Assembly (NCBI GenBank): GCA_030583845.1
Contig: CP129478.1
Coordinates: 651,686-715,685 of the forward strand
Source of the DNA: Candidatus Dojkabacteria bacterium
GTDB lineage: Bacteria > Patescibacteriota > Dojkabacteria > SC72 > JAHDCA01
DNA: 64,000 nucleotides
Direction: 5' to 3'
Part shown: positions 13,443 to 60,039 of the stretch, piece after piece
Layout: every line of letters starts with the position of its first letter
Position numbering within the stretch: the stretch's first letter is position 1
Program-made: the position numbers and the translations under genes
Notes under the pieces: model-generated
What the model saw: the letters and a program-made list of their open reading frames with translations, nothing else
Told to the model about the DNA's origin: nothing
Database searches by the model: none

Positions 13443-13501
13443 GCCTATCTGGTTATGGTGATAGGAAATTCTATCACAAATAGATAAGTAGATCAATCAA
13501 C

Positions 13502-24161: not shown

Positions 24162-24187
24162 TGCTCAGACCCGATCGGGTCTGAGCA
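24162..24187. repeat. 26-bp palindrome TGCTCAGACCCGATCGGGTCTGAGCA (copy 2) with adjacent module CTCTGAGCAGAGTGGGTCTAA (24194-24214)
   Basis: Read directly. Inverted orientation relative to copy 1. Lies in the divergent promoter region between the exonuclease and HD genes. Confidence 0.8.
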
Positions 24188-43487: not shown

Positions 43488-45140
43488 ATGGCTAATACCG
43501 ATCAGAGCCAAACACAACCTGCCCAAACGGCTGTTCCTCAGCCGCAAACCGATCCAGCAGCTACTCAAGCCGATCAAGTCGTTGATCAAAGCGCAGTTGC
43601 TACTTCAGTCGTTCCAGAGCCCTCAGCTGCTACATTGCCATCGACCGATACGAGCGAAGAAGAAGCCGTTATCAGTGCCGAAGTAGCTGCACAGCCAGTG
43701 GCCGAACTCTCAGCGCCTGCAGAACCGATCGCTATAGCAGCAGATCCAGCCCCGGATCAGGCGGCAGCACCTGCGGCATCAACTCCTCCAGCCCCGACAC
43801 CAGAGCCACAGCCAACTGATGAGCCTGCGGCAACGACAACCGATACAGCAGCCCAAGCTACTCAAGCCACTCCTGCATCTGGACAAGCCCCAATGCCACC
43901 AAGCGACAATCGTAAGTATGACGAAGTTATCGATCACCTCGTCGATACAGATGGTGGATTAGATGTAGGAACGCTCTTAGAGCAGATCGTTAAGAAAGCT
44001 CTCGAAGAAAAATCATCGGACATCCATATCGAGCCGCGTGAAGATGATGTTGTAGTTCGATTCCGCGTTGATGGTCTGCTTAGAGAGGTAATGACGATTG
44101 ATAAAAAGCTAGAGCAGGCATTGGTGTTCAAGATTAAAGTGGCATCGAGGCTGAGAACCGACGAGCATTTCGCACCTCAAGACGGTAAGATCCGCTTCCT
44201 TTTTGAGGATCTGAAGGTCGACACCCGTGTATCTATTCTTCCTACAACAAAAGGCGAGAAGGTTGTGTTTCGTCTGCTTACCCAGCAAGGGAAGGCGTTC
44301 GGACTTGAGGATCTTGGCGTCGTTGGCCGGGATCTTGAGCTGGTTCAGAAAAGCTTTACCAAGCCTTACGGCATGATCATCGCGGCTGGGCCTACCGGAT
44401 CAGGCAAGACGACCACACTGTATAGCATCTTGAAGATCCTCAACGATCCGGAGATCAATATCACAACGATTGAAGATCCGGTTGAGTATGACATCGATGG
44501 AATCAACCATGTGCAGGTCAACAGCAAGGCAAATATGACTTTCGCCACGGGATTGAGGTCTCTCCTGAGGCAAGACCCTGATGTGCTTATGATCGGTGAG
44601 ATCCGTGACGGTGAGACAGCCCGTATTGCGATAAACTCAGCTATGACAGGTCACTTAGTGCTCTCTACGATTCACACCAATGACGCTATCACCACAGTAC
44701 CGCGTCTGGTGGATATGGGAATTGAGCCATATCTGGTGGCATCAACAATAAATGTTGTGATTGCGCAAAGGTTGGCTCGTAAGTTGTGCGAATCATGTAG
44801 AGCGCAGACAACTATGTCTCCAGAAGAGCATGCCGAGTTGGCCAAGATCCGACCCGATATTGCCGCATTGATAAAGCCCGGTGAGCCTCATTTCAAGGCG
44901 GGGTCGTGCGCTGCGTGCGGTGGAGTAGGCTATAAAGGCCGTATCGGTCTGTACGAAATATTGGAAATGAATAAGCCAGTGCGTGACCAGGTGAACAGCG
45001 GCGCGTCGGCCGATGAGATATTCAAAACCGCGAGAGAATCAGGCTTGACGTTGATTGTAGAAGATGGGATAAAGAAGGTGAAACTCGGGATTATTAGCAT
45101 TGATGAGTTGCAACGTGTGACCGCAATACGAGAGGAGTAG
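43488..45140 (+). CDS. pilB: type IV pilus assembly ATPase PilB (GspE family) with ~135-aa Pro/Ala/Thr-rich disordered N-terminal extension
   Basis: 550 aa. Walker A GPTGSGKTTT, Asp box, His box, tetracysteine CESC...CAAC. Confidence 0.9.
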   Translation: MANTDQSQTQPAQTAVPQPQTDPAATQADQVVDQSAVATSVVPEPSAATLPSTDTSEEEAVISAEVAAQPVAELSAPAEPIAIAADPAPDQAAAPAASTPPAPTPEPQPTDEPAATTTDTAAQATQATPASGQAPMPPSDNRKYDEVIDHLVDTDGGLDVGTLLEQIVKKALEEKSSDIHIEPREDDVVVRFRVDGLLREVMTIDKKLEQALVFKIKVASRLRTDEHFAPQDGKIRFLFEDLKVDTRVSILPTTKGEKVVFRLLTQQGKAFGLEDLGVVGRDLELVQKSFTKPYGMIIAAGPTGSGKTTTLYSILKILNDPEINITTIEDPVEYDIDGINHVQVNSKANMTFATGLRSLLRQDPDVLMIGEIRDGETARIAINSAMTGHLVLSTIHTNDAITTVPRLVDMGIEPYLVASTINVVIAQRLARKLCESCRAQTTMSPEEHAELAKIRPDIAALIKPGEPHFKAGSCAACGGVGYKGRIGLYEILEMNKPVRDQVNSGASADEIFKTARESGLTLIVEDGIKKVKLGIISIDELQRVTAIREE

Positions 45141-45214
45141 TGACAGCTCTCCGAATATTCGATAGTTGAATCCAAAGGCTTTCCCGAGCAGATTAAAATC
45201 ACTGTCCATTCCGA

Positions 45215-46351
45215 ATGCCTGAAAAGGTAGCTCAAAGTGCAAATCCGAAAAGTAGCAATGCGCCAAGCACTCAGGAAAAGAAACAAGGAAAACCATCGAC
45301 TAAGCCGATCGGTAGGGTAAATCCTCTTGATGTAGCGCTTTCAATTAGACATATCTCGATCATGCTCAAGTCTGGTATGTCGCTTTCAGAAGCACTCAAT
45401 GTTGTTGCGTCACAGACCGCCAATCCGAAGCTTAAGCGTGCTTATGAGCTCGTCCTTGCCGACGTACAGGGTGGTATGACCGTCGCAGATGCGATGAAGA
45501 AGCACCCAAAAGCCTTTTCACACATCGTCGTGTCGGTAATTAGCGTAGGCGAAGAGGGTGGTACATTGGAGCAGAACCTGATCTTCCTCGCAGACTTCTT
45601 GAAGAAAAATCACGACCTTAACAAGAAGGTTAAAGGCGCTCTAGTGTATCCGGTCATCGTTTTCGCCATTACTGTGATAGAGATGGTAGGTGTGATGTTT
45701 TTCATCTTGCCTAAGCTTGAAGAGCTATTTGAGTCATTCACCGGAATCCCGCCATTTACACTCTTTATCCTAAACATGTCGAAGTTTATTCGAGAAAATA
45801 TCTTCCTGATTATAGGGGTAACTGTTGTTGTCGTAGTGGCCAGTGTGCTTCTGCTTAGAACCAAGGCGGGAATCCGCTTCAAGGATCGATTTATGTTGAA
45901 ATTTCCAATTATCAAGGAGCTCAACAAGAAGCATATAATCACCAACTTCTCGCGTACCCTAGGCATCTTGCTCCACAGCGGTATACCTATCTCTTCGGCT
46001 TTGGAGATTGCTTCAAGGACTGTCGAGAATAGCGTTTACACAGGGATGCTTGTGCAGGTACACCAGTCGGTGAAGTCTGGAAACACTCTCTCCTCCTCTT
46101 TAGAAAAATTCCCAGTATATTTCCCGAGTACTTTCACTAAGATGATCCAGATAGGTGAGGAGACCGGCACCCTTGAAGACAACTTGAATTATCTTTACGA
46201 CTTCTATGCTGAAGAGGTGACTGACATGAGCAACAACCTTGCAACCCTGCTTGAGCCGCTTCTCCTAGTATTTATCGGGATAATGATCGGCGTGCTTGCA
46301 ATCATGATTGTAGGTCCGATCTATCAGCTGACGGGAAGTATCAATAATTAA
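45215..46351 (+). CDS. pilC: type IV pilus platform protein PilC (GspF family)
   Basis: 378 aa. Two GspF repeats, 3 TM. Confidence 0.85.
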   Translation: MPEKVAQSANPKSSNAPSTQEKKQGKPSTKPIGRVNPLDVALSIRHISIMLKSGMSLSEALNVVASQTANPKLKRAYELVLADVQGGMTVADAMKKHPKAFSHIVVSVISVGEEGGTLEQNLIFLADFLKKNHDLNKKVKGALVYPVIVFAITVIEMVGVMFFILPKLEELFESFTGIPPFTLFILNMSKFIRENIFLIIGVTVVVVVASVLLLRTKAGIRFKDRFMLKFPIIKELNKKHIITNFSRTLGILLHSGIPISSALEIASRTVENSVYTGMLVQVHQSVKSGNTLSSSLEKFPVYFPSTFTKMIQIGEETGTLEDNLNYLYDFYAEEVTDMSNNLATLLEPLLLVFIGIMIGVLAIMIVGPIYQLTGSINN

Positions 46352-46401
46352 TGATTTTTTGATGTCTGTGGGGATCACGCATAAATTTATAAGGCAGATC
46401 C

Positions 46402-46854
46402 ATGGGGAGCAAGTATAAGGGATTCACACTGATTGAGATAGTAGTAGTAATCGGGATAATGATCGCAGCATTTGCTGTCGTTTTTCCACTAACTGTCAGT
46501 CAGATTCGTGAGAATAAGCTGATAAGCACAGCCGAAGAGGTCGCTGGTGCCATTTTCGAAGCCCAGCAGTATGCATATAATAAGAAGAATGGGCTTGGCT
46601 ACGGGATTAAGTTTAATTCGGACTCGTACGAGTATATATCTGGAGCAAACTATAATGAAGCAGTTGCAGACGACCTCTTTACAATCGAATCAGGTGTTGA
46701 TGTTACCGAATCGCTTTTCGGTACTAAAACAGATATCTTCTTCCAGCCCGGCTCTGTGAGGCCCGACGATCCAGGAGAGATAACAATCTCAGATGGTGCG
46801 CTGACAGTCACCGTAAGCATAAACTCAGAGGGTGCAATATTTATAAATGACTAG
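46402..46854 (+). CDS. prepilin-type pseudopilin / minor pilin
   Basis: 150 aa. N-terminal YKGFTLIEIVVVIGIMIAA. Confidence 0.7.
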   Translation: MGSKYKGFTLIEIVVVIGIMIAAFAVVFPLTVSQIRENKLISTAEEVAGAIFEAQQYAYNKKNGLGYGIKFNSDSYEYISGANYNEAVADDLFTIESGVDVTESLFGTKTDIFFQPGSVRPDDPGEITISDGALTVTVSINSEGAIFIND

Positions 46855-48835
46855 ACTCAGCAAAGCCAAAAATCGAGAGAATTATCGATATAGCGGCCTT
46901 AGCCTTGTTGAGATCCTCATCGTAGTCGGAATTCTTGGTACGATAATTGGTGTGATGTCATTCTTCTCAATCGACACCATGCGCTTCCACCAAAATAGCC
47001 GCAATAAGACCTTAGCCGCCGTGAAGATTGAGGAGCTAACCAGAGCTTTGGAGACAGTAAAAGGCAGCAACTGGTCGCAGCTCTACTCGTCGCTTGACGA
47101 TGGGGCAATGCATCTGCAATTCAGCGGCAACCAGTACTCGATAGTCGCTGGCGCCTCTACCGACGACAATATGAACCTAAGCTTTAGCACAGAACGTGTT
47201 TATAGAGACGCTTCGCGCAATATTGTCAGCAGCGGAGGCACTGAAGATATACACACGCTGAAGCTGAATGTGCAAGTCACATGGAATGATTTCCTTGGCG
47301 CATCACAGAACCTCAACACTACTATGTATGTTAATAACTGGGAAATTCAGAAATTTGACGACACGACCGAAGCGAATTTTGATGCTGGCACACTCTCAGA
47401 TACGTACGTCGAAAATGACGAGGGCGGAGAAATCTGGCTTGGCACAGTCTTTTATCCCGATTGGTGCAATCCTTCGCTCTCTATCAACCAGTACGATATC
47501 CCGGGATCTGCTACTGCGACTACAGTATTTGCCCGCCCTGGGTATGCCTATCTCGGCACAGCAGGCTCTTCTTCTGGTATATCTGTCACCAAGCTATCGA
47601 TAAATGGTGTCGATCCACCAGTGGTAGCGGTTGATCATGAGTATGACAACTATCTGGTTAATAATATTTTCGTATTAGGCAACTATGCCTACCTTGCAAC
47701 CACCGACGATAACAAAGAGGTAGTGATACTCGATATCTCGGTCACACCTTTTGTCGAAGTTGGGCATTATAATGGCTCGGGCACAAACAACGGATATAGC
47801 GTCTGGGTAGATGGTAGAGGGGTTGGTTATCTTGCTCAAGGCCGTAAGGTAGACACATTTGATGTTGGCTATACTGCGGGCAATCCTGGAACCGCCGCAG
47901 CCAACACAGGTGCAAGGACAAGTCTAGATGAGCTAAACCTGGTGTGGCTATTTGGGACTGTGAGCCAGGTAATCGTTATCGGTGACTATTTGTATGCCTC
48001 TCTCAACAATGACTGGTACGAGCTAGGTATTGTAAACGTCGCGGCTCCAAATAACATCTCAGTAACTTCTCAAACCACTGTAAATAACCAACAGGTGCAA
48101 GATATCTATATGTCTGCTGACGGCAGTCGTGCCTATTTTGGTACTAATAGCTCCTCTAGCGAGCGTGAGTTCTTCATACTCGACACGACTACGAAAACTG
48201 GTTCTCGACCCATTGTGGGTAGCTATGACACGAACGGTATGTCTGTGCGTGGTCTTGCACTACTCGAGGAGGATGACCGAGTTGTGCTCGTCGGAACAAG
48301 CGCAGAAGAGTATCAGGGGCTTGATATTAGCAATGAGAACTCACCAACAAAGTGTGGCGGTATGCAGATAAACAATGGAATCTACGATATCGATACAGTG
48401 GTCGACGGAGATGGAAATGCTTTCTCATACCTGATGACAGGTGACACTACAAGCGAGTTTAAGATCTTGCGTGGCGGTCCCGGCGGTGGTGGTGCAAACG
48501 GATATGGCTATGTGCCCGAAGGGTACTTTACTTCGAGAGTCTTCGATACAACTAGCGCAACTCCGACCTACTACAATTTCGCATGGAACGGTGACCTACC
48601 CACTAATACAAATGTGCAGGTTCAGCTGCGGAGCGGTGATACAGCTAACTTGAGCGGACAGCCTTGGCGTGGCCCAGATGGCACCGCTTCGACATACTTC
48701 ACAGGATTCACTACAAATACGCTGCCATCACAGCTTCAGAATCATCGATATATTCAGTACAGATTACGCTTAACTAGTGGAGATATCGCTGAATCTCCAG
48801 TATTTAAGGATATTTCACTTTTTTATTCGGAATAA
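46847..48835 (+). CDS. giant pseudopilin with prepilin N-terminus and beta-propeller-like (LVIVD-repeat-like) domain, candidate pilus-tip adhesin
   Basis: 662 aa. N-terminal YSGLSLVEILIVVGILG. Repeated blocks GNYAYLATTDDNKEVVILDIS, IGDYLYASLNNDWYELGIVNV and ADGSRAYFGTN. Confidence 0.6.
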   Translation: MTRLSKAKNRENYRYSGLSLVEILIVVGILGTIIGVMSFFSIDTMRFHQNSRNKTLAAVKIEELTRALETVKGSNWSQLYSSLDDGAMHLQFSGNQYSIVAGASTDDNMNLSFSTERVYRDASRNIVSSGGTEDIHTLKLNVQVTWNDFLGASQNLNTTMYVNNWEIQKFDDTTEANFDAGTLSDTYVENDEGGEIWLGTVFYPDWCNPSLSINQYDIPGSATATTVFARPGYAYLGTAGSSSGISVTKLSINGVDPPVVAVDHEYDNYLVNNIFVLGNYAYLATTDDNKEVVILDISVTPFVEVGHYNGSGTNNGYSVWVDGRGVGYLAQGRKVDTFDVGYTAGNPGTAAANTGARTSLDELNLVWLFGTVSQVIVIGDYLYASLNNDWYELGIVNVAAPNNISVTSQTTVNNQQVQDIYMSADGSRAYFGTNSSSSEREFFILDTTTKTGSRPIVGSYDTNGMSVRGLALLEEDDRVVLVGTSAEEYQGLDISNENSPTKCGGMQINNGIYDIDTVVDGDGNAFSYLMTGDTTSEFKILRGGPGGGGANGYGYVPEGYFTSRVFDTTSATPTYYNFAWNGDLPTNTNVQVQLRSGDTANLSGQPWRGPDGTASTYFTGFTTNTLPSQLQNHRYIQYRLRLTSGDIAESPVFKDISLFYSE

Positions 48836-49757: not shown

Positions 49758-52700
49758 TTATGGCTTGAACCCGACCTCTTGCTTGATTGCCTCTCGGTCG
49801 TTTGAGAACACAGCTCGTGCGATCTCGTAGTAGCGCGTATCGTGGTGTAGCACATATGTAGGGTATGTGGCGTTATTTGCTAATCGCAATGTCCTATCCA
49901 TTTCGATAGATTTGCCATTCTCACTTGTACCGAAAGCCAAGAGACTACCGCGGACTTTGAGTCCATCTCTTATAGGTTGTCCCAGATCAACCTCGGGGAT
50001 ATCGATCTTCCCATCGGCGATTATAAATGTGTTTAAAGTATCATATTTAGGATATGCGGATCCGCTTGAACGATACAGGCCATCATTGATTGTCACATTG
50101 CCTGACACGACAAATATGCAGCCGTTTCGGTTATTGTCATTCACTATATCTTGATCGATTGTGAGCGATGGTAGGAAAAATACAGCGGGAACATTGCATG
50201 TAAATGGTTGTGCCCCCCCGATCACTGCGGCTGCATTGCTAATTACAATGCAAGGGTTGCCGTTAGTTGTCGTACATCCTGTAACCCCTGAAGCATATGT
50301 TGGCATTGCTCCACCTGCGAATGTACCTACATTCACATCGGCAGGTGAGGACTGAATAGTTTTCTGTGCAGATTCTAATAGATCTTCATACCAGCTCCTG
50401 TTGTTATTGTCGGCATAGTTAGGTGATCTAAATAGGAAGTTATTCGCGCTATTTTTAAAGATAGCTTGGGGAATAGTGCTGCTACCTGCTCCGATCCATT
50501 CAGTTGTGATGTCAATTGTGTCTGTAGCGAAGTTGAATGGGTATGTGGTAAATGTGGTACATCCAGGCACGCTAAGGCATAAGTTTGGATGGTCTGGGTC
50601 GTACTCTCTCACAGTGACGGTATCAGTTATTTCATCTGTGTAAACAAGACCTGCACGTGTGACCATCCATGGTCTGAAGATATCCTCGAATATTGTACTC
50701 GATGGGTTGTTGTTCATGTTGCAGGCTCGATCTACTGCATATCCGTCGAATACCAACGAGCCAGAATCATTATCACCGATATTGATCCACTCTGTCTCAT
50801 TTTGGGTCTGAGGTGCTCCAGTTATATCTAGCTCGCGAAGGTATTGTGACTCAGGTCTATCATCATTGTAGTCACCATCAGGGTTATTTGGATTGTCAGC
50901 TGGCCATGGGTTGTACCAAGCGACAGGCTGACCTGGGAAGTTGTTGTTTGAAGCAATAGGAGCAATTGTTGGACCACCATCCTGCAGTAAACCTTCCATA
51001 TAGTAGTTATCCAGTCCAGTAGCACCAGTATGCTGATCTTGAGCGCTCCAAGGTACTGCTATAACCTCTGCGTTTACGATCGAAGCAGTATCTAACGTGA
51101 CTGTTGGGCGAACTAAGTCAATGGTCGTAGTGCCTCGGTTGTGCATTACATGTCCAGATGTATAGTTCACGATGCTCTCGCCAGGTAGGTTTGCTGTGTC
51201 GTCCATTTTGCCCATCTCATCCTTTGTCAGCCACAAGTTGTGGTATGTGCCGCTCCACGAGCCTGTGCCTTCGCCGTTGAACTGTACTTGGAAGTTTGCA
51301 ATAGCGTTGTTACCGTTCTGCTGATAGAGCACATATGTACCTGTGTTCCAGTTTCCTCCAGTGGCCCCTTTAAGTGTTGCGCTATAACCGTTACCGTGAA
51401 TTGTCAGGTCACCCTGCAGGTACCACACATTGTATTGAACACCCCCAACGGTCGCAGTAGTCGCGACACCATCTGACCATGAGTGGCTGTCTTCCGCGTA
51501 ACACCATACATTCCGATCTGAAGATGTCCTCGCAGTCAATGTGTTGGCAACATTGTTCGGATCTGTGAAGTTAGGTGACCAACCGCTGTTGGCTGTGGTG
51601 AGTGGGAAATCGGTCTGGTTTGACCTGATGCATCGCTGCGTCCCTGACCCATCAACCCTAGAGTCACGTATAAAGAAGGTGTTTGCGGCAAACGCCTGAT
51701 AGCCAGGGAGTGTCAGCTTCTTAGAGAAAATAATGCTCAATGGCAGATACTTCTGATTGTCCCCGCCAAGCATAGCAGGTGTAGCAAGAGAGAATTCCAT
51801 GCGATCGATATCGGCAGATCCGTCAGGATCGTTCACAGTCATGCTGTAGTTTGTCGGATTATTATCAACACAGGCTGGGCCATTGTCGTTATCTGTAGCC
51901 GTACCTACAATTGGATTGTCGTCATGATCCGGCGTAGTGGCGGTAATTGAAGGGGCCTGATTTTGGAATCTCAGGAGACAATCTCCACCATCACAGGTGC
52001 CTCCTACCGGCTGGTACATATCCCAACCGTTACAGAAGTTCTGGGTTACATTGTCATATACATTTGTAGTCGTCCAGAAGCCTTGAGTATCGATATCATT
52101 ATAGTAAGGGTTCCCGACAAATTGAGCCTTCATCTGGTCGATTGAAGAGGTGAAGACTCCACTGTTTTGTCCACTAGCTATATATGGACACACCCACTGT
52201 GCCCCAGGGTCGGGATCGGTGGCAATCTTGTAGCAGAATCGGAGGTGTCGTGGATTACCGTATGGGTCGGTCTCTCCTGCTGTTACATCTATACTGAACT
52301 GGTTTTGACCATAGTTGGCATATCTTCCTCCTAAAATTCGCCCTGCCCCAGGATTGAAAGTAAAGGCGTCACAGAATGGGGGGAGGTTCGGTGCCCATTG
52401 GAACGATCTAGTAGTTGATGTCTCTCCACATAGGTTGTAAGCCCTTATCTCGATTGTGCGAGTCGTGCCTGGCCACGAAGGGTCAACAGATGTAATAGTG
52501 CATTGTGTGCCAGTAAGGTATGCGTTTTGTCCACTCCCTGTGTGACCGGAGCACCTTTCTGTAATGTTTGCGCCATCCATATATAGACGGAAGGTTCCAA
52601 CACCAGAGTGGCTTTGATATTGGCATTGGTTATTGCTACATGCTGAGGAATTTGTATCAGCGCCCCAACTTCCGAGAGTCCATGTAAGTGTTGTACCTGT

Positions 52701-53249
52701 GTGTATTGTGGATCCGGCGGCCGGTGCGGTGTAGTTTAAGCCTGATGGTGGGGTACAGGTGGGTGAACAGCTGCAAGGTGGGGGTGGGGGAGGGGGATTG
52801 CAGGTACAACTACTAGAACATCCATTCGAACAATTTCCTAGACTCCCGTCACATTCTTCTCCTGGGTCGAGCACACCGTTTCCGCAGTTTGGAGGTGGTT
52901 CTGAGGGTGGGATACAGCCGTTGCAATAATCGCCGGCGGGCAAGCTTCGTGGGCTTGTAATGCAGTTTTCCACTCCACAATAATCCAACCCCATGTAGTC
53001 CAGCCCTTGATGAAAACATCGAGGTGTTCCAGAATGTCCAGCAGGGCATTGCGGAAACTCTCGTTCACACTCAACTGTTACCCATTCATCTCCCTCGCAA
53101 CCCTGTTCCGTCACTTCGCAAGTTGTCCAGCTCCATACACCACAAGTAAAGGCTAAAGCCTTGTCAGCGAGAACAAAATGAAAAGTAAATAGCAGTGCTA
53201 CGACTAATCCTAGTACAGATATGTTTCTACCTAGAGCTCCATTATTCAT
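49758..53249 (-). CDS. very large Cys-rich secreted protein with poly-Pro hinge, candidate surface adhesin
   Basis: 1163 aa. Signal peptide MNNGALGRNISVLGLVVALLFTFHFVLADKALA. About 30 Cys in the first 150 aa. CNPPPPPPPCSCSPTCTPP hinge. Rest is Gly/Thr/Asn-rich beta-type sequence. Confidence 0.5.
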   Translation of the reverse strand: MNNGALGRNISVLGLVVALLFTFHFVLADKALAFTCGVWSWTTCEVTEQGCEGDEWVTVECEREFPQCPAGHSGTPRCFHQGLDYMGLDYCGVENCITSPRSLPAGDYCNGCIPPSEPPPNCGNGVLDPGEECDGSLGNCSNGCSSSCTCNPPPPPPPCSCSPTCTPPSGLNYTAPAAGSTIHTGTTLTWTLGSWGADTNSSACSNNQCQYQSHSGVGTFRLYMDGANITERCSGHTGSGQNAYLTGTQCTITSVDPSWPGTTRTIEIRAYNLCGETSTTRSFQWAPNLPPFCDAFTFNPGAGRILGGRYANYGQNQFSIDVTAGETDPYGNPRHLRFCYKIATDPDPGAQWVCPYIASGQNSGVFTSSIDQMKAQFVGNPYYNDIDTQGFWTTTNVYDNVTQNFCNGWDMYQPVGGTCDGGDCLLRFQNQAPSITATTPDHDDNPIVGTATDNDNGPACVDNNPTNYSMTVNDPDGSADIDRMEFSLATPAMLGGDNQKYLPLSIIFSKKLTLPGYQAFAANTFFIRDSRVDGSGTQRCIRSNQTDFPLTTANSGWSPNFTDPNNVANTLTARTSSDRNVWCYAEDSHSWSDGVATTATVGGVQYNVWYLQGDLTIHGNGYSATLKGATGGNWNTGTYVLYQQNGNNAIANFQVQFNGEGTGSWSGTYHNLWLTKDEMGKMDDTANLPGESIVNYTSGHVMHNRGTTTIDLVRPTVTLDTASIVNAEVIAVPWSAQDQHTGATGLDNYYMEGLLQDGGPTIAPIASNNNFPGQPVAWYNPWPADNPNNPDGDYNDDRPESQYLRELDITGAPQTQNETEWINIGDNDSGSLVFDGYAVDRACNMNNNPSSTIFEDIFRPWMVTRAGLVYTDEITDTVTVREYDPDHPNLCLSVPGCTTFTTYPFNFATDTIDITTEWIGAGSSTIPQAIFKNSANNFLFRSPNYADNNNRSWYEDLLESAQKTIQSSPADVNVGTFAGGAMPTYASGVTGCTTTNGNPCIVISNAAAVIGGAQPFTCNVPAVFFLPSLTIDQDIVNDNNRNGCIFVVSGNVTINDGLYRSSGSAYPKYDTLNTFIIADGKIDIPEVDLGQPIRDGLKVRGSLLAFGTSENGKSIEMDRTLRLANNATYPTYVLHHDTRYYEIARAVFSNDREAIKQEVGFKP

Positions 53250-53910
53250 AACTAATAATCCTCAAATCATAGTTGAAATTTGCGCCATATATTACGGGGT
53301 ACAGATCTATGTTGCCAGGGCCAAGCTCTTCAATTGTTTCATAGCGCAGGTAATCATTATGTAGCCTCTGCAATGCACAGTAATATTCGGACTTATTCCC
53401 TGACTGTGAGCAGAACTCATCGGTTAGCTGAGAACTGTCTGGGGCAGCAGCTAAGTATTTTATGTTAATTTGCTCACCAATCTTGATACCTTCTCTAAAT
53501 CCTTCAATTCCCTTCTTGTCCCGCCCAGCGTAATTAAGTGTAAAATCATTTGTAAATCCAGACTTATCATCAATCGGTAAATCTCCAGTTATGATAAATT
53601 TCACCTTCACACAGTTATTATTTATGTCAGGTAGCTTGCCCACTAAATATTGAATGTCATTTTCTTCAATCACCTCTTCAACTACTGGCTGGACACTGTA
53701 TAGCTTCCAGATACTACCTACTGAAACCGTAACATCACCATCTTCACCGCCATAATAGTAAAGTGAATCATCCATTTGGCACTTTTCTACAGTCTCGTCT
53801 GGTGAATCGCTCTCTCTCCGAAGAATAAACAAAGAGCCCATAACTACGGGAATAAGAACGACCAATATTGCTATTGCATAGAGATAACTCTTGCGGAGTG
53901 TAACCTTCAT
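53242..53910 (-). CDS. membrane-anchored hypothetical protein
   Basis: 222 aa, N-terminal TM. Overlaps the downstream gene start by 8 nt. Confidence 0.4.
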   Translation of the reverse strand: MKVTLRKSYLYAIAILVVLIPVVMGSLFILRRESDSPDETVEKCQMDDSLYYYGGEDGDVTVSVGSIWKLYSVQPVVEEVIEENDIQYLVGKLPDINNNCVKVKFIITGDLPIDDKSGFTNDFTLNYAGRDKKGIEGFREGIKIGEQINIKYLAAAPDSSQLTDEFCSQSGNKSEYYCALQRLHNDYLRYETIEELGPGNIDLYPVIYGANFNYDLRIISYE

Positions 53911-53999
53911 GTCTTGGTTAGGTGTTTAATTTTCACACCTAAGCGTAATAGTAGGGAACATTGTTGTCAAGCAGGGATTAGAGGATGCGTAATCTCTAG

Positions 54000-55712
54000 T
54001 TAGTATCCAGCGTCGGCTTCTTCCAATTGACTTGGCTCATCTTCTTGTGGTTGCTGCATAAGCTCATGCTGCCACTCCGCTAACTTTTCACCCCACCCTG
54101 GTATCGTCGGCAAGAGTCTTAATTCTAGCTGATCACCATTATTTACGACCTCATAGACTGAGTAACTTTGTACAGACCTGTGAGTAACTAATACTAACTG
54201 CCCCTCTGTAAGCCATGATAAAATGTTTTCATCTGTTATTTGAGCAGTACCTAGTAACGGGGAGCTATCCTCGTTTATCACCCGGAATTCGAAAGGATCA
54301 TCCACGTTCCATTGGTGAGCACTCACATTGCCCGGAGACCTTTCAACTCCGAAATATGTGTCGCCGTTGCTATCTTGGATTGGGCCTGTTGGCTTCCATG
54401 CAATGGCTAATGGCCCTAATGCCATAATCAAAGTATTTTCATCAAGGAAGGGCAGAAGGTCAGAAGCGGCTACATAGTATTCCATATACTGCCCAGCCTC
54501 GTTTTTAACTACAAGCCTGAGATAAGGGGTATAAGCAATCTCACCATTCTCCGCTTCAATAACTCTTACATGTGAACCGTTAAGATACACGCAAGTATCT
54601 TGATCAAAAACAAGTGGCACTCCAGCATGCTCGGCGGGAGCCTCTCCATTCGTTCTAAAATTTATAGGAGCGGTTCTATCTTGTCCGTTTGTCATATTTA
54701 TACTGACCCTATAGGTCACACCATCAACGCGATATTCCGGGATAAAATAACGATTTATCTCTGTACCTTGCGGTATCATTATCTCTGGACCACTTATGCC
54801 TCTTACACCGTCTACCTCGCATGTGTTAGCTACTGGGGGCAACCAGGTCGGTGTGAAGGTTGGAGTCGGTGTATTCGTTGTGGTTTGTGTTGGAGTTGAA
54901 GTAGGGGTATGAGTGTTGGTAGCTGTAGCTGTAGCGGTCGGGGTTGATGTGCTTGTAGGAGTCTGGGTGTTCGTAGCTGTTTGACTAGCCACTTTATCGT
55001 GCGTTAATGCAGGTGCAGGAGTCCTGGTTGGTATTGATGCCTCTTTACTGTATAAATTTCCCCCTGCGCTTACCTGAGCACCACATGCAGTAAGAAATCC
55101 CGCTAAAAGGACGAGTAATGCCGCCCCTCGACGTCCCACTCGGAATCTGCTAATTGGTTCACCAGCCTGCACTCGCCTAGTAGCATCACCAAGGAACATG
55201 CCTATGAAGAGTGCATGCGCTTTTATATATGAATCCACATTGCTATCTACCCTGTCAGTCATTATAGCACTCCTTGCTTCCTGTAAAGCAAGCCATGCTT
55301 CGTACTGCTGTGGCATAAGTCTTTCGATCTCGCTGACCTCCATACTACTGAATAGTGTATCGGCTGATTTAGAAATAGCCGTTGCCATCCTGACAATGTC
55401 TACAATTCTTTGGCGTGTAAAGTCTTGTATAACTTCTGATCCTAATCCTTCTGTAGTGCAGGAATAGTTGTTTTTAATGTATGTTTCGAGCCCAACTGTG
55501 TTGGTCAAAAACAGTGGATATTCATCTTTTTCGCCAGTTAGGAGGTATGCAGGGACTGTGTATTTATTCTCAATTACTTCACGCATTAATAAGTTTGCTG
55601 CTGTAGCGCTAGGATCTATCCCATCATCATGGATCTCAGGGATATGTTCTTCGGGACGCCGATCTGTCTGATGTGTATCCACGTCAGATTGCTTTCTAGA
55701 CCAAAAGCTCAT
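54000..55712 (-). CDS. bitopic hypothetical protein: cytoplasmic N-domain, TM, Thr/Pro-rich linker, extracytoplasmic C-domain
   Basis: 570 aa. TM AALLVLLAGFLTACGA. 45-aa TPTSTSTPTATATATNTHTPTSTPTQTTTNTPTPTFTPT linker. Confidence 0.4.
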   Translation of the reverse strand: MSFWSRKQSDVDTHQTDRRPEEHIPEIHDDGIDPSATAANLLMREVIENKYTVPAYLLTGEKDEYPLFLTNTVGLETYIKNNYSCTTEGLGSEVIQDFTRQRIVDIVRMATAISKSADTLFSSMEVSEIERLMPQQYEAWLALQEARSAIMTDRVDSNVDSYIKAHALFIGMFLGDATRRVQAGEPISRFRVGRRGAALLVLLAGFLTACGAQVSAGGNLYSKEASIPTRTPAPALTHDKVASQTATNTQTPTSTSTPTATATATNTHTPTSTPTQTTTNTPTPTFTPTWLPPVANTCEVDGVRGISGPEIMIPQGTEINRYFIPEYRVDGVTYRVSINMTNGQDRTAPINFRTNGEAPAEHAGVPLVFDQDTCVYLNGSHVRVIEAENGEIAYTPYLRLVVKNEAGQYMEYYVAASDLLPFLDENTLIMALGPLAIAWKPTGPIQDSNGDTYFGVERSPGNVSAHQWNVDDPFEFRVINEDSSPLLGTAQITDENILSWLTEGQLVLVTHRSVQSYSVYEVVNNGDQLELRLLPTIPGWGEKLAEWQHELMQQPQEDEPSQLEEADAGY

Positions 55713-55969
55713 TGATCCGATGTAATAATTTTATGGCCAATTATACTATAATTCACCCTATAGTTCAATCTGTGAAGCTGGCGACTATGGGCGTGACTTG
55801 GTGTAATTACACTGGCAATATCTCACTGCGTAAAGCAATAAATTGGCACTTTCAAGCACCAATGTCGTGATACGACAATCTCAGCACCTAGCTATGGGTT
55901 GGCAATGAGGTTTGTAAAAGATTAAGGAAGAATTTAACTTCTTAGCCCAATACAAAGATATCTCAAACG

Positions 55970-57517
55970 CTACTCTTTATTAGGAGCATCTGGTTCATCT
56001 TGAGAGGGTTTATCCTCCGACGGTTTAACATCCTGCACTATTCTGTGCGCCTGAGTTCCCTTCTCATTATAAAACCGAATCGCGGTCGCCAACTCAATAT
56101 CATTTCCCTCCTTATCCTTAACAGCCTCTTCCAATGTTTTTCCATCTTGCCATGCACGGAATGCCTCCATTACAGCTTTCATGCCTGCGGTGGTTTTCAT
56201 CGGATGCGAGTGAACACCTGCTCCCATGGTGATTATGAAGTCGATCGTACCAACAGCATTAATATAGTCGGCTAAAAGCACAGGATTCATACCTCCAGAT
56301 GCGATAGGGGTACATCTGTTAACTGTGCGCCAGTCGGCCTTCGCAGTGACTGCATGTATATCATTCTTGTTAATTTCCCTTCTCATCCTACTTACCTCGA
56401 GTGGCCCGACGTTCCATAGATTTTCTTCTGCTTTAATCATCGTCTGTACATCTGAGTCTGTTTCTGGGACCTTGCTCCAGACCTGCTTGAAATGGTGCCC
56501 TTGTGCCTCAACTTTTAGGCACTGGTGTACTGCTACTACATCCTCACTCAATCCTACTGCACCTGCATCCATCTTCCCAACACCAGCTGTACCACAGTGG
56601 ATACCTGATGCACCAGCCAGTCGTGCGAACTTTGTAAGAACTGGCACCGAGAATCCAAAAGCGTTCTCTTTGCGGGTGAATGCAGCATGTCCAGCGCGGT
56701 GGAAGTGAAGGAAAACATCTGGATATCTTCTGCGCACTGTCTGAATTGCCATCCAACCAGCAGTGATCCCATCAACCAGGAATGAGTAGCTGCCTGGCTT
56801 CATCACTTGTCGTACATGATCCGCTCTCTGAATCATTGTGTCGAAATCTGGCGCAGATATGTTGAACGAGTGTACCTTGGTCCTGCCCGTTTTGTCCTCT
56901 GCCATGTCCATAGCATGTCTGACTGCGACAACCTCTTTGTCGAATGGTGCGAAATCTTGATTTGCTTGTGGCTCATCGTTTTTGACGAAATCACCGCCTC
57001 CGATCCAGAAGTCGTAGCACAGCTCGGCATACTCGGTCGTGGTGAGTCCAATCTTTGGCTTGATGATCGTACCAAGAATTGGGCGGTCATACACTTGGAG
57101 GTACTCGCGTAGGTCTTCGAGTGATACGCTTGGGCCGTCATACATCGACATCATCTGCGACGGGAAATAGACATCCTCCATCTTGCATGCCTTCAGGTTG
57201 CCCATACCGAAAAGGTTGCCGGCGATGAAGGTAAGGATATTTTGGATATTTCCGCCCTGGTCGAACATCCTCCAAGGGTAGGCGATATATGCGAAGCCTT
57301 TCTCTTCATCGACTTCATATACTAGCGCGTCGAGTCCCTTTGAGAATCCTGTCGCTGAGCCAACTGTGAGGTTGGAGCCTGTCGAGGACTCTGATGCCAT
57401 CTCTGACGCAGCTTCGAGAATTGACTGCCCACCATATGTTTCTACGCGATATGCTGCGAGTAGGTACTCGCCGTTGTATACGTCTTTGTTTCCGAGTGAG
57501 ATGTATTGTTTCTGCAT
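55970..57517 (-). CDS. rbcL: ribulose-1,5-bisphosphate carboxylase/oxygenase large subunit, form II/III-like
   Basis: 515 aa. GTIIKPKIGL (K175), GGDFVKNDEP (carbamylated Lys KxDE), LHFHRAGHAAF (His294/His327 region), ASGGMNP and GAGVHSHP phosphate-binding loops. The catalytic set appears complete, so it is not a form IV RLP. Confidence 0.85.
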   Translation of the reverse strand: MQKQYISLGNKDVYNGEYLLAAYRVETYGGQSILEAASEMASESSTGSNLTVGSATGFSKGLDALVYEVDEEKGFAYIAYPWRMFDQGGNIQNILTFIAGNLFGMGNLKACKMEDVYFPSQMMSMYDGPSVSLEDLREYLQVYDRPILGTIIKPKIGLTTTEYAELCYDFWIGGGDFVKNDEPQANQDFAPFDKEVVAVRHAMDMAEDKTGRTKVHSFNISAPDFDTMIQRADHVRQVMKPGSYSFLVDGITAGWMAIQTVRRRYPDVFLHFHRAGHAAFTRKENAFGFSVPVLTKFARLAGASGIHCGTAGVGKMDAGAVGLSEDVVAVHQCLKVEAQGHHFKQVWSKVPETDSDVQTMIKAEENLWNVGPLEVSRMRREINKNDIHAVTAKADWRTVNRCTPIASGGMNPVLLADYINAVGTIDFIITMGAGVHSHPMKTTAGMKAVMEAFRAWQDGKTLEEAVKDKEGNDIELATAIRFYNEKGTQAHRIVQDVKPSEDKPSQDEPDAPNKE

Positions 57518-57549: not shown

Positions 57550-57591
57550 ACCTTAAGTGCTCAGACCCGATCGGGTCTGAGCACTTAAGGT
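57550..57591. repeat. 42-bp perfect palindrome ACCTTAAGTGCTCAGACCCGATCGGGTCTGAGCACTTAAGGT (copy 3 of the 24-bp core)
   Basis: Read directly. Lies between the HAD-hydrolase stop and the RuBisCO start (both minus strand). Confidence 0.8.
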
Positions 57592-57626: not shown

Positions 57627-58361
57627 TCAATTGCTGGTTTCGAGGAACTCAATAATATCCCGTACTTTTGCAAGCGAGTCAACAGTGTAGCGTGGTTTGA
57701 ACATTCCTTCCCTTGTCGCGGTCTGGCCCAATTTTGTCAGGTTTGCTTCTACAGTTACCATACCAAGCATATTTGCTCCATATATATCTAGCTTCAGACT
57801 ATTCCCAATCACAAAAAGCTCGCTTGGCGACATTTTTAATTTGTGCATCGCAAGCATATACGAATTAGGTGCGGGCTTATTGCTTCCAGACTCTTCTGAC
57901 GTAACAAGTAAGTCGACATATCGGCCTATCCCAAGCTCGTGGATCTGTTCTAATTTCATCTTGACCGTGCCGTCAGAGATAATTGCAACTTTTCGGCCAC
58001 TTTCTTTTAGCCACTGGAGGAATTCCTCCGCATCATCGTAAAGTCGGAGATTTTTGAGCATATACTTATAGTAAGAGTCCTGCAGTCGGTATAGTAGCTC
58101 GAATCTGTCTGATCTGATATCGGCATTCTCGACCATGTGCTGAAGGTAAAGTGCTGTATCGTAGGCAGCAGCGTCGCTGGTTGTCGCATTGTTGATATAT
58201 TCACGCGATGATGAGAGCATTTTCTCAGAGTCTGATTCCGAGTATTTGCCTTCGGTCAGGTCTGAGAAAAGCTTGGCGGTCTCTTTTAACGCGTCGCGCT
58301 CAACATCGGAGGTATTACAAATTGTGTCGTTTAGATCGACTAGGGCAGCTTTAATTTTCAT
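57627..58361 (-). CDS. HAD-superfamily hydrolase
   Basis: 244 aa. N-terminal VDLNDT (motif I-like), ISDGT (motif II) and K...GNSLKLD (motifs III/IV). Confidence 0.65.
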   Translation of the reverse strand: MKIKAALVDLNDTICNTSDVERDALKETAKLFSDLTEGKYSESDSEKMLSSSREYINNATTSDAAAYDTALYLQHMVENADIRSDRFELLYRLQDSYYKYMLKNLRLYDDAEEFLQWLKESGRKVAIISDGTVKMKLEQIHELGIGRYVDLLVTSEESGSNKPAPNSYMLAMHKLKMSPSELFVIGNSLKLDIYGANMLGMVTVEANLTKLGQTATREGMFKPRYTVDSLAKVRDIIEFLETSN

Positions 58362-58466
58362 CTCTCTATATTATCAGCTTTCTGCGAACTCGCCCAGTAT
58401 AGGGCAGGGGTAGTGAGAGTTAATGTGGTGATTTTGAAAATTATGCTGTACTGAAAGCGTTTATAA

Positions 58467-58498
58467 AATTGCTCAGACCCGATCGGGTCTGAGCAATT
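58467..58498. repeat. 32-bp palindrome AATTGCTCAGACCCGATCGGGTCTGAGCAATT (copy 4)
   Basis: Read directly. Lies in the divergent region between the HAD gene start and the dsbA-like gene. Confidence 0.8.
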
Positions 58499-58646
58499 CG
58501 GGTCTGACCTCTGCTGGGCTGCCCGCTTAAGAAAGATTTAAGAATCGCCAGCCCCTAACAAGCAAAAAGTGGCGCGGCAAAATTTTATCTGATACACTCA
58601 TCCATGAATCATTGCTCAGATTTAATATTTTTTATCTATTTTTTAC

Positions 58647-59540
58647 ATGGCAGAACAAAGCAATGCCCCAGTGAAGGGCCAGCCAGCGCAGAGTGCCTCG
58701 CAATCGAAGCAGACTAAGCAATCACACACGGCAGGAGAAGAAAATGTCGTCTCGATTGATGTGCAGCAGCTCCTGACGCCTGTAGCAATCTTGCTCGCAG
58801 GGATGATGGTGAGCGGCACACTTTACTTTAGCTTAAATGACAGTACAGGTAGCTCATCGAAGACCTTGGGTGCTACAGACAAGACCACCACTACAACTAC
58901 AGGTACAACTGTAGAAGTTGACTCAGATGTAAGCGTTACACTCTCCGGCTATGCCGAAGAGATTGGTGTAGACATGGATGAGTATGACAAATGTGTCGCA
59001 GCCAACGATACTTCAGAGGTTGATGCAGACACTGCCGCTGGTACTAGCGCAGGTGTTAGCGGAACCCCAGGATTCATCATTGGAAAGCTTTCAGATGATG
59101 GGACGGTTGAAGGCTATAGAATTTCAGGAGCCTACCCATATGGCGACTTCCAGACAATTTTGTCGGCATTGGAAAGCGGTGATACTCCAGCTCCAAAGTA
59201 TGACTTCAACCAGGACGGTACACTTGATGCATGGCCAACAGGTAAGACATCTCTCGATGATGATGCATATAAAGGCAACAAGGATGATGCACAGTATGCG
59301 ATTGTTGAGTTCTCAGATTTTGAGTGTCCATTTTGTCAGCGACATTACCAGCAGACCTACAGTTCTATCATTGATGGATATGTAGACAATGGTAAGGCAG
59401 TTTACGCATTTAGAGATTTCCCACTAAGCTTCCATCCAAAGGCAGTACCAGCAGCTGTTGCGGCTAACTGTGTAATGGATCAGAAGGGTGCTGAGGGATA
59501 CTTCCAGATGCATGACAAGATTTTCGGGAACGGAATCTAG
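58647..59540 (+). CDS. DsbA-like thiol:disulfide oxidoreductase (membrane-anchored, long disordered stalk)
   Basis: 297 aa. TM near N-terminus. Thioredoxin-fold CPFC active site (FSDFECPFCQRHY). Confidence 0.75.
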   Translation: MAEQSNAPVKGQPAQSASQSKQTKQSHTAGEENVVSIDVQQLLTPVAILLAGMMVSGTLYFSLNDSTGSSSKTLGATDKTTTTTTGTTVEVDSDVSVTLSGYAEEIGVDMDEYDKCVAANDTSEVDADTAAGTSAGVSGTPGFIIGKLSDDGTVEGYRISGAYPYGDFQTILSALESGDTPAPKYDFNQDGTLDAWPTGKTSLDDDAYKGNKDDAQYAIVEFSDFECPFCQRHYQQTYSSIIDGYVDNGKAVYAFRDFPLSFHPKAVPAAVAANCVMDQKGAEGYFQMHDKIFGNGI

Positions 59541-59598
59541 GCCGAACGAGGCAGAAATCGTTTAAGACTTTAGTTACGGCACGTTTATAGCTGTACTT

Positions 59599-60039
59599 AT
59601 GGGAAGCAAGAAAGATCTTAGATCTACAACGAATTTGATAATCCTCCTGCTGGCAGCAGCAGGGGGATTGCTTTCTCTATATCTGTGGAACAGCACGCTT
59701 CAAGGCTCAGTCGACTTTTGCACGACAAACTGCGAGGCGGTATTAACAAGCCCATACTCCAAGATACTTGGAATTCCTGTCGCCGCACTAGGGTTTGTTT
59801 ATTACGCCGGCATGGCGACGTTATGCTTCCAGAGGATACACATTAAGCATATTCTCCTAGATCGGATGCTCGCGATTGCGATATTGGCCGGCATCCTATT
59901 CACGATTTATCTCAGATATCTTGAATTTGGAGTTATAGAAGAGATATGCATGTGGTGCTGGGGTAGTGTTGTCACGATGCTAGCGATCACAATTACCTAT
60001 GTATATTGGGTGATCAAAGATAAGGTGAAGCTCGCTTAA
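59599..60039 (+). CDS. vitamin K epoxide reductase (VKOR) family protein
   Basis: 146 aa, 4 TM. Loop Cys pair CTTNC followed by TSPYSKILGIPVAALG. TM4 CMWC redox motif. Confidence 0.7.
   Translation: MGSKKDLRSTTNLIILLLAAAGGLLSLYLWNSTLQGSVDFCTTNCEAVLTSPYSKILGIPVAALGFVYYAGMATLCFQRIHIKHILLDRMLAIAILAGILFTIYLRYLEFGVIEEICMWCWGSVVTMLAITITYVYWVIKDKVKLA

Follow-up and report, generated by a model that had tools for sequence, protein, structure and literature searches.

Form II/III RuBisCO in Dojkabacteria was published in 2016 (PMC5113843), with an insertion of 48 aa reported for Dojkabacteria WS6-1 and of 29 aa for the archaeal/SR1 type. In the same work (Wrighton 2016, PMC5113843), a two-gene AMP pathway feeding RuBisCO was inferred in a closed WS6 genome and a CPR form II/III enzyme, a Peregrinibacteria homologue, was shown to be active; the WS6 proteins that failed the assays were III-like forms. 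AMP phosphorylase and RuBisCO have been described as conserved in Dojkabacteria (Jaffe 2020), and close clustering of the partner genes with RuBisCO was found mainly for form III-c (Jaffe et al., PMC6389311). Here, we analysed a RuBisCO gene and its surroundings in a stretch of 64,000 nucleotides from Candidatus Dojkabacteria (hereafter, the window). That this phylum has a II/III RuBisCO is published, as are the long insertion, the role in salvage and the dispersal of the partner genes, and NCBI already holds an annotated entry for this very protein. The new lead is a conserved HAD gene that sits directly beside RuBisCO across a whole subclade. Taken as a whole, we consider it very likely that the window encodes a functional Dojkabacteria form II/III RuBisCO of nucleoside salvage, paired with a HAD enzyme that most plausibly acts on a phosphorylated metabolite linked to RuBisCO.

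The RuBisCO large subunit is encoded by an ATG-started open reading frame of 515 aa at 55970..57517 on the minus strand, exactly where the first-pass annotation had placed it, and all the sequence blocks quoted there were found. Pfam matched RuBisCO_large_N (1e-26) and RuBisCO_large (5e-81), and the NCBIfam equivalog for ribulose-bisphosphate carboxylase (NF010002) passed its cutoff of 489 with 507.8 bits. By comparison, the rubisco_III model reached 317 bits (cutoff 497) and the form IV models MtnW and OiaX only 90-144 bits (cutoffs 409-700). The best solved relatives are likewise form II/III enzymes, namely 9DYP (61% identity, 651 bits, 1e-194) and that of M. burtonii, 5MAC (57% identity, 580 bits, 4e-173), followed by form II of R. 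rubrum (43% identity, 309 bits, 5e-91) and form III of T. kodakarensis (204 bits, 4e-59). The closest match among GTDB representatives is at 62%. An NCBI protein deposited as Candidatus Dojkabacteria (P0001) is 100% identical to the window RuBisCO, which, together with a bacterial RNase P RNA in the window, bears out the earlier guess of a CPR host. In a neighbor-joining tree of II/III sequences with R. rubrum form II as the root, the protein was nested among those of Dojkabacteria/CPR and Methanosarcinales; the exclusion of forms I, III and IV rests on the HMM and PDB scores.

The motifs lie at ESSTGSN 43-49, N101, IKPK 152-155, GGDFVKNDE 174-182 and HFHRAGH 271-277, and in the C-terminal half at GIHCGTAGVGK 305-315, SGGMN 407-411 and MGAGVHSH 431-438. 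The first-pass annotation had allowed for a substitution at the equivalents of Lys201, Asp203 and Glu204. None occurs, as the carbamylatable Lys and the Mg2+ ligands K179/D181/E182 align with K201/D203/E204 of spinach and K191/D193/E194 of R. rubrum. Residues E43, N101, K153, K155, H273, R274, H277, H307 and K315 match E60, N123, K175, K177, H294, R295, H298, H327 and K334 of spinach, and S407, G408 and G409 match S379, G380 and G381. The spinach T65 position is taken by S48, a conservative change that is also seen in 9DYP, and the G403/G404 region corresponds to G432-A433-G434, again as in 9DYP. A form IV RuBisCO-like protein was rejected, since every catalytic residue is kept and the corresponding models fall far under their cutoffs. 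The view that the protein is a carboxylase-type form II/III enzyme rather than a form IV homologue thus holds, and at the sequence level the gene is confirmed to encode a genuine large subunit of form II/III, complete in its catalytic and ligand residues.

The protein carries the long variant of the form II/III-specific insertion (residues ~349-394; 56336..56473, minus strand), placed between the equivalents of K334 and S379, as indicated by alignments and motif spacing. When aligned with R. rubrum form II, query residues ~349-394 find no counterpart. The insertion is ~46-50 aa long, and 9DYP and 5MAC are ~20-23 aa shorter in this region. From GKM to SGG the spacing is 90, which falls within the 80-95 of most relatives and exceeds the 67 of the 29-aa type. 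Past the conserved fold, an acidic, Pro- and Lys-rich C-terminal tail follows (residues ~490-515; 55973..56050, minus strand); alignments to 9DYP, 5MAC and 8VGS stop at query residues 483-485, and the length after the SGG motif varies among relatives. A terminator-like hairpin with a T-rich tail was picked up by consensus scan ~107 nt downstream of the stop codon (55842..55863, minus strand), a weak signal because the number of such sites is not above the shuffled background.

The first-pass annotation had remarked on the lack of AMP phosphorylase and R15P isomerase in the window and asked where these partners are encoded. Their absence from the window stands: Pfam detected neither Glycos_transf_3 nor IF-2B domains in nearly all open reading frames of at least 150 aa, and a motif scan of the six-frame translations recovered no motif of either enzyme. 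As an anomaly, it does not stand, since a motif scan of ~0.91 Mb of RuBisCO flanks from 58 related loci gave no partner signature and clustering is mainly a feature of form III-c. In other Dojkabacteria, RuBisCO is neighboured by infB/nusA/dnaJ/pnp/groEL/recA. The conserved genes of 517, 387 and 365 aa upstream of RuBisCO in those genomes, which we considered as partner candidates, are IF-2, NusA and DnaJ. Because its form is published for Dojkabacteria and missing adjacent partners are the norm, the window RuBisCO itself is ordinary. As in most form II/III cases, the two partner enzymes are presumably encoded at other sites of the ~1-Mb genome. RuBP would derive from the ribose of scavenged nucleotides or nucleosides through AMP phosphorylase and R15P isomerase, and RuBisCO would most likely carboxylate it within the AMP/pentose-bisphosphate pathway to give two 3-phosphoglycerate, which could enter lower glycolysis and yield ATP by substrate-level phosphorylation. 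Alternatively, the enzyme might serve autotrophy, in a CBB-like or reductive hexulose-phosphate cycle that includes phosphoribulokinase (PRK). A CPR form II/III enzyme did complement autotrophic growth of a RuBisCO-less host (PMC5113843), and PRK is encoded in some CPR genomes, but those carry form III-c (PMC6389311). Neither PRK nor pentose-phosphate genes were found in the 64-kb window, which argues against an autotrophic cycle, and we regard it as highly improbable.

Directly upstream of RuBisCO lies a HAD-IA phosphatase-like gene of 244 aa (57627..58361, minus strand; Pfam HAD_2 and Hydrolase). An exhaustive search of 1.84 billion sequences showed that the clade to which it belongs is sharply bounded, with eight representatives at E <= 1e-30; members score at least 258 bits and the next match 133 bits. 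Word-indexed searches recovered few members, such that the family is visible only by exhaustive search. A reciprocal search of metagenomes by means of the HAD alignment was uninformative, as its two hits were remote HADs (21-23% identity) outside the clade type. The clade is nearly confined to contigs with RuBisCO, and its members are found directly beside RuBisCO in nine of the ten known contexts, one of which is rearranged and convergent. In the window and seven related contexts (L050, L051, L052, L056, L058, L059 and the contig of P0014), the HAD gene is a same-strand neighbour of RuBisCO with gaps of 17-109 nt, the upper end being the window (109 nt, as against 17-56 nt in the relatives). 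On the RuBisCO tree, HAD-positive states span from the base to the tips of a 24-member clade, and the pairing is ancestral to this subclade. The HAD gene, as the upstream member, would be transcribed together with RuBisCO.

We also considered that the adjacency is inherited synteny without functional coupling, the HAD being a generic housekeeping phosphatase. Several observations are consistent with this explanation. HAD is absent beside two RuBisCOs of the subclade, and no clade-type HAD occurs within 10 kb in 48 of the 49 other II/III loci. The basal clade member, P0277, adjoins a cytidine/dCMP deaminase and an HhH-GPD glycosylase rather than RuBisCO, which also weakens the linkage. Moreover, the linked cases are not independent, because most share a block formed by a DsbA-like gene (58647-59540) and a VKOR gene (59599-60039), which in the window lies divergent from the HAD-RuBisCO pair (58647..60039, plus strand; Pfam) and is syntenic with it in most subclade members (L050, L051, L052, L056 and L058). 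We treat these two genes as genomic context and draw no functional link. Against synteny alone, however, the adjacency survives in L060 with inverted orientation (convergent with RuBisCO, 4-nt overlap) and entirely different neighbours, and in L059 it is kept though the upstream genes changed. The same-strand gaps of the relatives are short, and the clade is tiny and almost restricted to RuBisCO-bearing contigs. Uncoupled inheritance is, in our view, improbable, and a functional pairing of the HAD with RuBisCO is the reading we retain.

A feature peculiar to the window is a REP-like perfect palindrome (57552..57589, core 57559-57582) in the 109-nt spacer between HAD and RuBisCO, where it forms a 19-bp hairpin. 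For the spacer, the folding energy is -51.8 kcal/mol (z = -7.6), and a strong hairpin between the two genes speaks for inherited synteny and against the HAD link. The 24-nt palindrome has four exact copies in the window (57559-57582, 58471-58494 and two elsewhere), with none expected by chance, and it is absent from the HAD-RuBisCO spacers of the relatives and from all 62 loci. Lacking a U-tract, the palindrome is unlikely to act as an intrinsic terminator. The second copy lies in the divergent intergenic region between the HAD and DsbA-like genes (58362..58646), together with promoter-like hexamers for a putative HAD-RuBisCO unit, although the consensus matches there are not above background. 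The neighbours listed in the first-pass annotation, i.e., a HAD hydrolase, DsbA, VKOR and two palindrome copies, are thus all in place.

What might the HAD do? Its motif I reads DLNDT, against DLDDT in L051/L058-type relatives, and its motif IV GNxxxxD; the clade is marked by S[DN]G at motif II and GNxxxxD at motif IV. Of the HAD-IA (C1 cap) motifs I (DxDxT), II (S/T), III (K) and IV (DxxxxD), residues D9, S129, K162 and D192 are present. The first motif IV residue is an asparagine (Asn187) clade-wide. At the Asp+2 position, that of the general acid/base, the window protein has Asn11, a replacement shared only with L050 among 155 homologues, and it has lost a cap Arg that is otherwise conserved in the clade. 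The gene is under purifying selection (pN 0.19, pS 0.78; reported in place of dN/dS because synonymous sites are saturated). An AF2 model of high confidence (pLDDT 91.5) confirms the predicted fold as a Rossmannoid core with a helical cap, with NANP, PH1655 and YfnB as structural neighbours (Foldseek, TM 0.76-0.80). We consider three activities possible: that of a phosphatase of pentose bisphosphates, of a nucleotidase, or of a phosphatase of phosphoglycolate.

The best curated NCBIfam family is RuBP 5-phosphatase (NF053830), to which the window HAD aligns over its full length (3-237 against 2-234 of 234). The same model is the top family in eight of the ten closest HAD relatives and takes second place in the remaining two, with scores of 120-250 bits for close relatives. 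The HAD would most plausibly hydrolyse a phosphorylated compound connected with the RuBisCO reaction, and a pentose bisphosphate is the favoured candidate, such as RuBP or the inhibitory XuBP, its epimer; in that case the enzyme would be a flux valve or serve metabolite repair. The suggestion of the first-pass annotation that the neighbouring HAD could act on a phosphorylated pentose gains support from the conserved adjacency and the similarity to RuBP phosphatase. Nevertheless, the score of the window protein (129.6 bits) is far below the cutoff of 330, and CTE7 (113 bits) and the YjjG nucleotidase model (87 bits) come nearly as high. The RuBisCO-linked HADs form a clade of their own, separate from the RuBP-phosphatase-like one. 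In favour of a RuBP phosphatase, a neighbouring clade includes fusions of HAD and class II aldolase; no Aldolase_II domain (FucA-type Ru1P aldolase) was found by Pfam in the window or linked loci. Co-expressed with RuBisCO, a RuBP phosphatase would compete for RuBP, and the Asp+2 and cap Arg positions of the window copy also argue against this reading. We put forward only tentatively that the clade may be an unrecognised auxiliary enzyme of CPR salvage RuBisCO, a pentose-bisphosphate phosphatase related to haloarchaeal RuBP 5-phosphatase that evolved independently of CbbY and clears inhibitors such as XuBP or acts as a RuBP overflow valve, with the Asp+2-to-Asn change and the loss of the cap Arg marking a further shift in substrate or mechanism in the lineage of the window.

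A YjjG-like 5'-nucleotidase would instead convert NMPs to nucleosides, feeding or regulating a branch from nucleoside phosphorylase through R1P kinase to R15P that ends at RuBisCO. Clade members reach 87-139 bits on the YjjG/YfnB model, and YfnB ranks with the best structural neighbours. The basal member lies beside the deaminase and glycosylase, and an IMPDH and a Ham1 NTP pyrophosphatase are encoded in the L060 neighbourhood. A form of the pathway that runs through nucleoside phosphorylase has been described (Aono 2015, as cited in PMC5113843). However, every YjjG score is under the cutoff of 159.9 bits, the RuBP-phosphatase model outranks YjjG in each clade member tested, and neither the window nor the linked loci showed a nucleoside phosphorylase or an R1P kinase. 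We regard a nucleotidase as rather unlikely.

Form II/III enzymes have poor CO2/O2 specificity, and HAD-type 2-phosphoglycolate (2-PG) phosphatases accompany RuBisCO in cbb operons. The window HAD might be a functional analogue of CbbZ or TK1734 that clears the toxic oxygenase product during transient O2 exposure. Yet TK1734, the physiologically relevant archaeal enzyme, resembles plant 2-PG phosphatase and not the nearest families of the window HAD. The 2-PG phosphatase models match weakly (30-47 bits), far below their own cutoffs (180-466 bits) and much under the scores of RuBP phosphatase, CTE7 and YjjG. Removal of 2-PG does matter also under anaerobic life, in an organism whose RuBisCO serves nucleoside salvage (PMC11032457). 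On balance, we find a 2-PG phosphatase decidedly doubtful, and a pentose bisphosphate is still the substrate we favour.

The metabolic repertoires of Dojkabacteria rank among the smallest known, and a gene kept beside RuBisCO through rearrangements therefore probably serves the RuBisCO pathway. Should the HAD prove to hydrolyse a sugar bisphosphate or 2-PG, then repair of metabolites or control of flux around RuBisCO would reach beyond autotrophs to heterotrophic salvage. The pair would also offer a simple two-gene module for CPR enzyme biochemistry.

Among described systems, a close counterpart of the window RuBisCO is the form II/III enzyme of Dojkabacteria WS6_GWF2_39_15 (PMC5113843), with which it shares the phylum, the form, the insertion site and the non-adjacency of partner genes. 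The insertions are of like length and both are much longer than the archaeal/SR1 type, and the inferred role, AMP/nucleoside salvage feeding lower glycolysis, is common to the two. The genomes differ, the source of the window having a GC content of ~45% and a contig of 1.04 Mb against 38.7% and 0.896 Mb for WS6_GWF2_39_15, and the likeness is drawn from the published description; the WS6 paper (PMC5113843) makes no mention of a HAD neighbour of RuBisCO. The M. burtonii enzyme 5MAC and the structures 9DYP/8VGS are similar to the window RuBisCO in full-length identity (57-61%), in their identical catalytic residues and in the position of the insertion. Unlike them, the window protein has the extra ~20-23 insertion residues and an acidic C-terminal tail of ~30 aa, and unlike M. 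burtonii (5MAC), its host is bacterial.

For the HAD, the closest parallels in gene arrangement are CbbY (XuBP phosphatase) and CbbZ (2-PG phosphatase) of cbb operons (PMC10212915), which also place a HAD gene beside and co-oriented with RuBisCO and which may share with the window HAD the role of removing a by-product or inhibitor of RuBisCO. The window HAD is not their orthologue, and it belongs to a CPR bacterium that is not autotrophic and whose RuBisCO is of the salvage type. Orthology with CbbY was rejected, as RsCbbY (4UAT/4UAU) is not among the 52 PDB sequence matches at E <= 1e-3; by fold, CbbY ranks 44th in Foldseek (TM 0.60, TMq; 16% identity). The haloarchaeal RuBP 5-phosphatase (Halxa_2271/VNG_1202C; Sato et al. 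2022, PMC9700705), which defines the family closest to the window HAD, acts on the substrate of RuBisCO, and the class II aldolase fusions among the relatives of the window HAD mirror the haloarchaeal hadhlase-fucA operon. The window HAD differs from it in its sub-cutoff score, separate clade, GNxxxxD motif IV and Asn at Asp+2. Finally, the two differ in context: the haloarchaeal enzyme replaces RuBisCO, whereas the window HAD is paired with it.

The RuBisCO large-subunit gene (55970-57517, minus strand) begins with ATG and forms a 515-aa open reading frame in which a Pfam scan matched both large-subunit domains. The start codon is right, since in a PDB sequence comparison the N-terminus (MQKQYISLGN) pairs with that of 9DYP (MQKEYIQIGN), a solved form II/III structure, from the first residue onward. 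Every signature catalytic and ligand-binding block quoted in the first-pass annotation was found in the protein. The ESSTGSN block supplies E43, S48 and N49 of the canonical catalytic set; N101, K153 and K155 are further members, and H273, R274, H277, H307, K315, S407, G408, G409 and G432-A433-G434 match canonical catalytic positions. Residue mapping places the carbamylated Lys equivalent at K179 and the Mg ligands at D181 and E182, all unsubstituted. The set departs from the form I/II consensus at just two points, Ser for Thr65 and GAG for GGG, and 9DYP shares both. With this set complete, the NCBIfam equivalog NF010002 'ribulose-bisphosphate carboxylase' above its cutoff (507.8 vs 489 bits) and the RuBisCO-like (form IV) models MtnW and OiaX far below theirs (90-144 bits vs 409-700), the earlier reading of a carboxylase rather than a form IV protein holds. 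The type III model also failed (317 bits, cutoff 497).

Among all PDB sequences, the best matches were 9DYP (E 1e-194), Methanococcoides burtonii 5MAC (4e-173) and 8VGS (3e-172), with form II R. rubrum (~5e-91), form III T. kodakarensis (4e-59) and form I (~1e-50) far behind; identity by alignment was 61% to 9DYP, 57% to 5MAC and 43% to R. rubrum. Relative to form II, the protein carries an insertion at residues ~349-394, at the same site as the known 29-aa II/III insert but ~20-23 aa longer. Such a long variant is usual in its relatives: of 108 scorable hits, most show a GKM-to-SGG spacing of 80-95 and 14 show one of 67. The window also contains a bacterial class A RNase P RNA. An identical protein, encoded on a 1,036,382-bp contig, is present in NCBI nr ('MAG: ribulose-bisphosphate carboxylase [Candidatus Dojkabacteria bacterium]'). 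Wrighton et al. 2016 (PMC5113843) had described form II/III RuBisCO from Dojkabacteria before; in the closed genome WS6-1 the insertion measures 48 aa. The enzyme thus adds a sequence to a kind already described, and it is already annotated. We propose with high confidence that it would be an active form II/III enzyme of heterotrophic nucleotide-ribose salvage, converting RuBP, CO2 and H2O into two 3-PGA, with AMP phosphorylase and R15P isomerase presumably encoded elsewhere in the genome.

Pfam searches covering almost every window ORF of 150 aa or more detected no Glycos_transf_3 (AMP phosphorylase), IF-2B (R15P isomerase), PRK or class II aldolase, confirming that both partners are absent from the window; the ORFs comprise housekeeping, restriction-modification, pilus, ABC transporter and cell-surface genes. 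A restriction-modification-like cluster (11026-14719, plus strand) encodes a 629-aa methyltransferase of the N6_Mtase/Eco57I/MmeI type, a 176-aa protein with a NYN domain and, as a distinct product of 405 aa, a protein that matches the Type ISP C-terminal specificity domain. The lack of flanking partners noted in the first-pass annotation is not unusual, since a signature scan found neither enzyme in 0.91 Mb of RuBisCO-flanking DNA from 58 related loci. In seven other Dojkabacteria loci, RuBisCO adjoins infB, nusA, dnaJ, pnp, groEL or rsmB. Jaffe et al. (PMC6389311) reported that AMP-pathway genes lie near form III-c more often, and closer to it, than is the case for the other forms, and that RuBisCO, like AMP phosphorylase, is conserved in Dojkabacteria. 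Absence of partner genes nearby is thus normal for form II/III. At 49758-55712 (minus strand), three successive large ORFs (1163, 222 and 570 aa) lack Pfam matches. Their N-termini resemble signal peptides, and they contain stretches rich in Cys or in Pro as well as a Thr/Pro-rich linker. They separate RuBisCO from an LVIVD/T2SSF/T2SSE pilus cluster (43488-48835) that lies directly downstream of RuBisCO in relatives L056 and L058, and are probably a block of surface-protein genes whose insertion is lineage-specific.

Upstream of RuBisCO on the same strand lies a 244-aa HAD gene (57627-58361, minus strand). A homologue occurs directly upstream on the same strand, with gaps of 17-56 nt, at seven related loci (L050, L051, L052, L056, the P0014 contig, L058 and L059), whose RuBisCOs are 86, 70, 69, 67, 66, 64 and 63% identical to the window's, respectively; L053 and L057 have none beside RuBisCO. 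In a neighbour-joining tree, HAD-positive loci run from base to tips of a 24-member RuBisCO clade, with two nested losses. That the adjacency carries no function, the third-ranked reading, appears unlikely. At L060 (GCA_034680565.1), whose RuBisCO is 57% identical, the pair is kept in convergent orientation with a 4-nt overlap (HAD P0123, 7533-8270, minus; RuBisCO, 6001-7536, plus) amid entirely different neighbours (LysW, ATP-grasp, NIF3, IMPDH, Ham1). No other result points so strongly to selection for the pairing, as opposed to inherited synteny. We found no earlier report of the pair in the searchable literature, making it a modest, apparently unreported lead. Our confidence that this HAD, co-oriented with RuBisCO, serves the pathway as an accessory is moderate to low.

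The window's copy of the HAD has several peculiarities. Motif I reads DLNDT in the window and L050, placing Asn at Asp+2, the general acid/base of HAD phosphatases; of 155 homologues, 145 have Asp at this position, and none but these two has Asn. Since their Asn codons differ (AAC and AAT, respectively), the substitution is real and retained. Both also have a clade-conserved cap Arg replaced (HNR to DT), as well as the Arg after motif II. Because the gene is still constrained (pN 0.19 vs saturated pS 0.78, similar to DsbA), these changes suggest a functional shift rather than decay. The HAD-RuBisCO spacer is enlarged to 109 nt by an inserted perfect palindrome with a 19-bp stem and no U-tract, the region folding at -51.8 kcal/mol (z = -7.6); this palindrome, one of four copies in the window, could modulate expression of HAD relative to RuBisCO. 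The two palindromic-repeat copies noted earlier near RuBisCO are exact: the 24-nt perfect palindrome GCTCAGACCCGATCGGGTCTGAGC occurs at 4969-4992, 24163-24186, 57559-57582 and 58471-58494, always intergenic, with partly similar flanks (GGTCTGA/GCTCAGA sub-repeats) and a chance expectation of none, and the last two copies bracket the HAD gene. Absent from 62 related loci, the closest relative included, it is a genome-specific REP-like dispersed element. The nearby DsbA-like protein (58647-59540, plus strand) looks permuted or composite: residues 99-147 match positions 125-174 of the 191 in the Pfam DSBA profile, towards the profile's C-terminus, and residues 213-294, at the protein's extreme C-terminus, match positions 11-88 of the 165 in Thioredoxin_4, the N-terminal portion with CPFC. 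Similar-sized proteins stand beside VKOR in relatives.

The top NCBIfam model for the HAD protein, aligned over its full length, is NF053830, the haloarchaeal RuBP 5-phosphatase of Sato et al. 2022 (PMC9700705), at 129.6 bits (cutoff 330), with CTE7 (113 bits) and the YjjG nucleotidase (87 bits) close behind. A pentose-bisphosphate (RuBP/XuBP-type) phosphatase is our first-ranked, if tentative, reading. A simple 'RuBP phosphatase' call is disfavoured because the linked HADs form a clade of their own, because the basal member P0277 adjoins a cytidine/dCMP deaminase away from RuBisCO, because only one of 49 species-representative II/III loci (L002) has a clade-like HAD, 8 kb from RuBisCO, and because the AlphaFold model (pLDDT 91.5) is nearest to NANP/HDHD4, PH1655, YfnB and TON_0338, with CbbY only 44th. 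A nucleotidase, in keeping with the YjjG score, ranks second as a somewhat less probable function, and a 2-PG phosphatase, fourth, is improbable. When 1.84 billion cluster representatives were searched exhaustively with phmmer, only 8 hits reached E<=1e-30, and a clade profile splits members (at least 258 bits) from all others (at most 133 bits); the clade's ~15 representatives share motif II S[DN]G and motif IV GNxxxxD. In a larger neighbouring group (TDL...GD), proteins reach 250 bits on the RuBP-phosphatase model. There, P0132, P0151 and P0181 (433-443 aa) and P0238 (616 aa) join a HAD to a FucA-type class II aldolase, and the HAD domain of P0132, the one fusion scanned, best matches RuBP 5-phosphatase (243 bits). 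These proteins look like fused RuBP phosphatase/Ru1P aldolase enzymes, echoing the haloarchaeal RuBP phosphatase/Ru1P aldolase operon.
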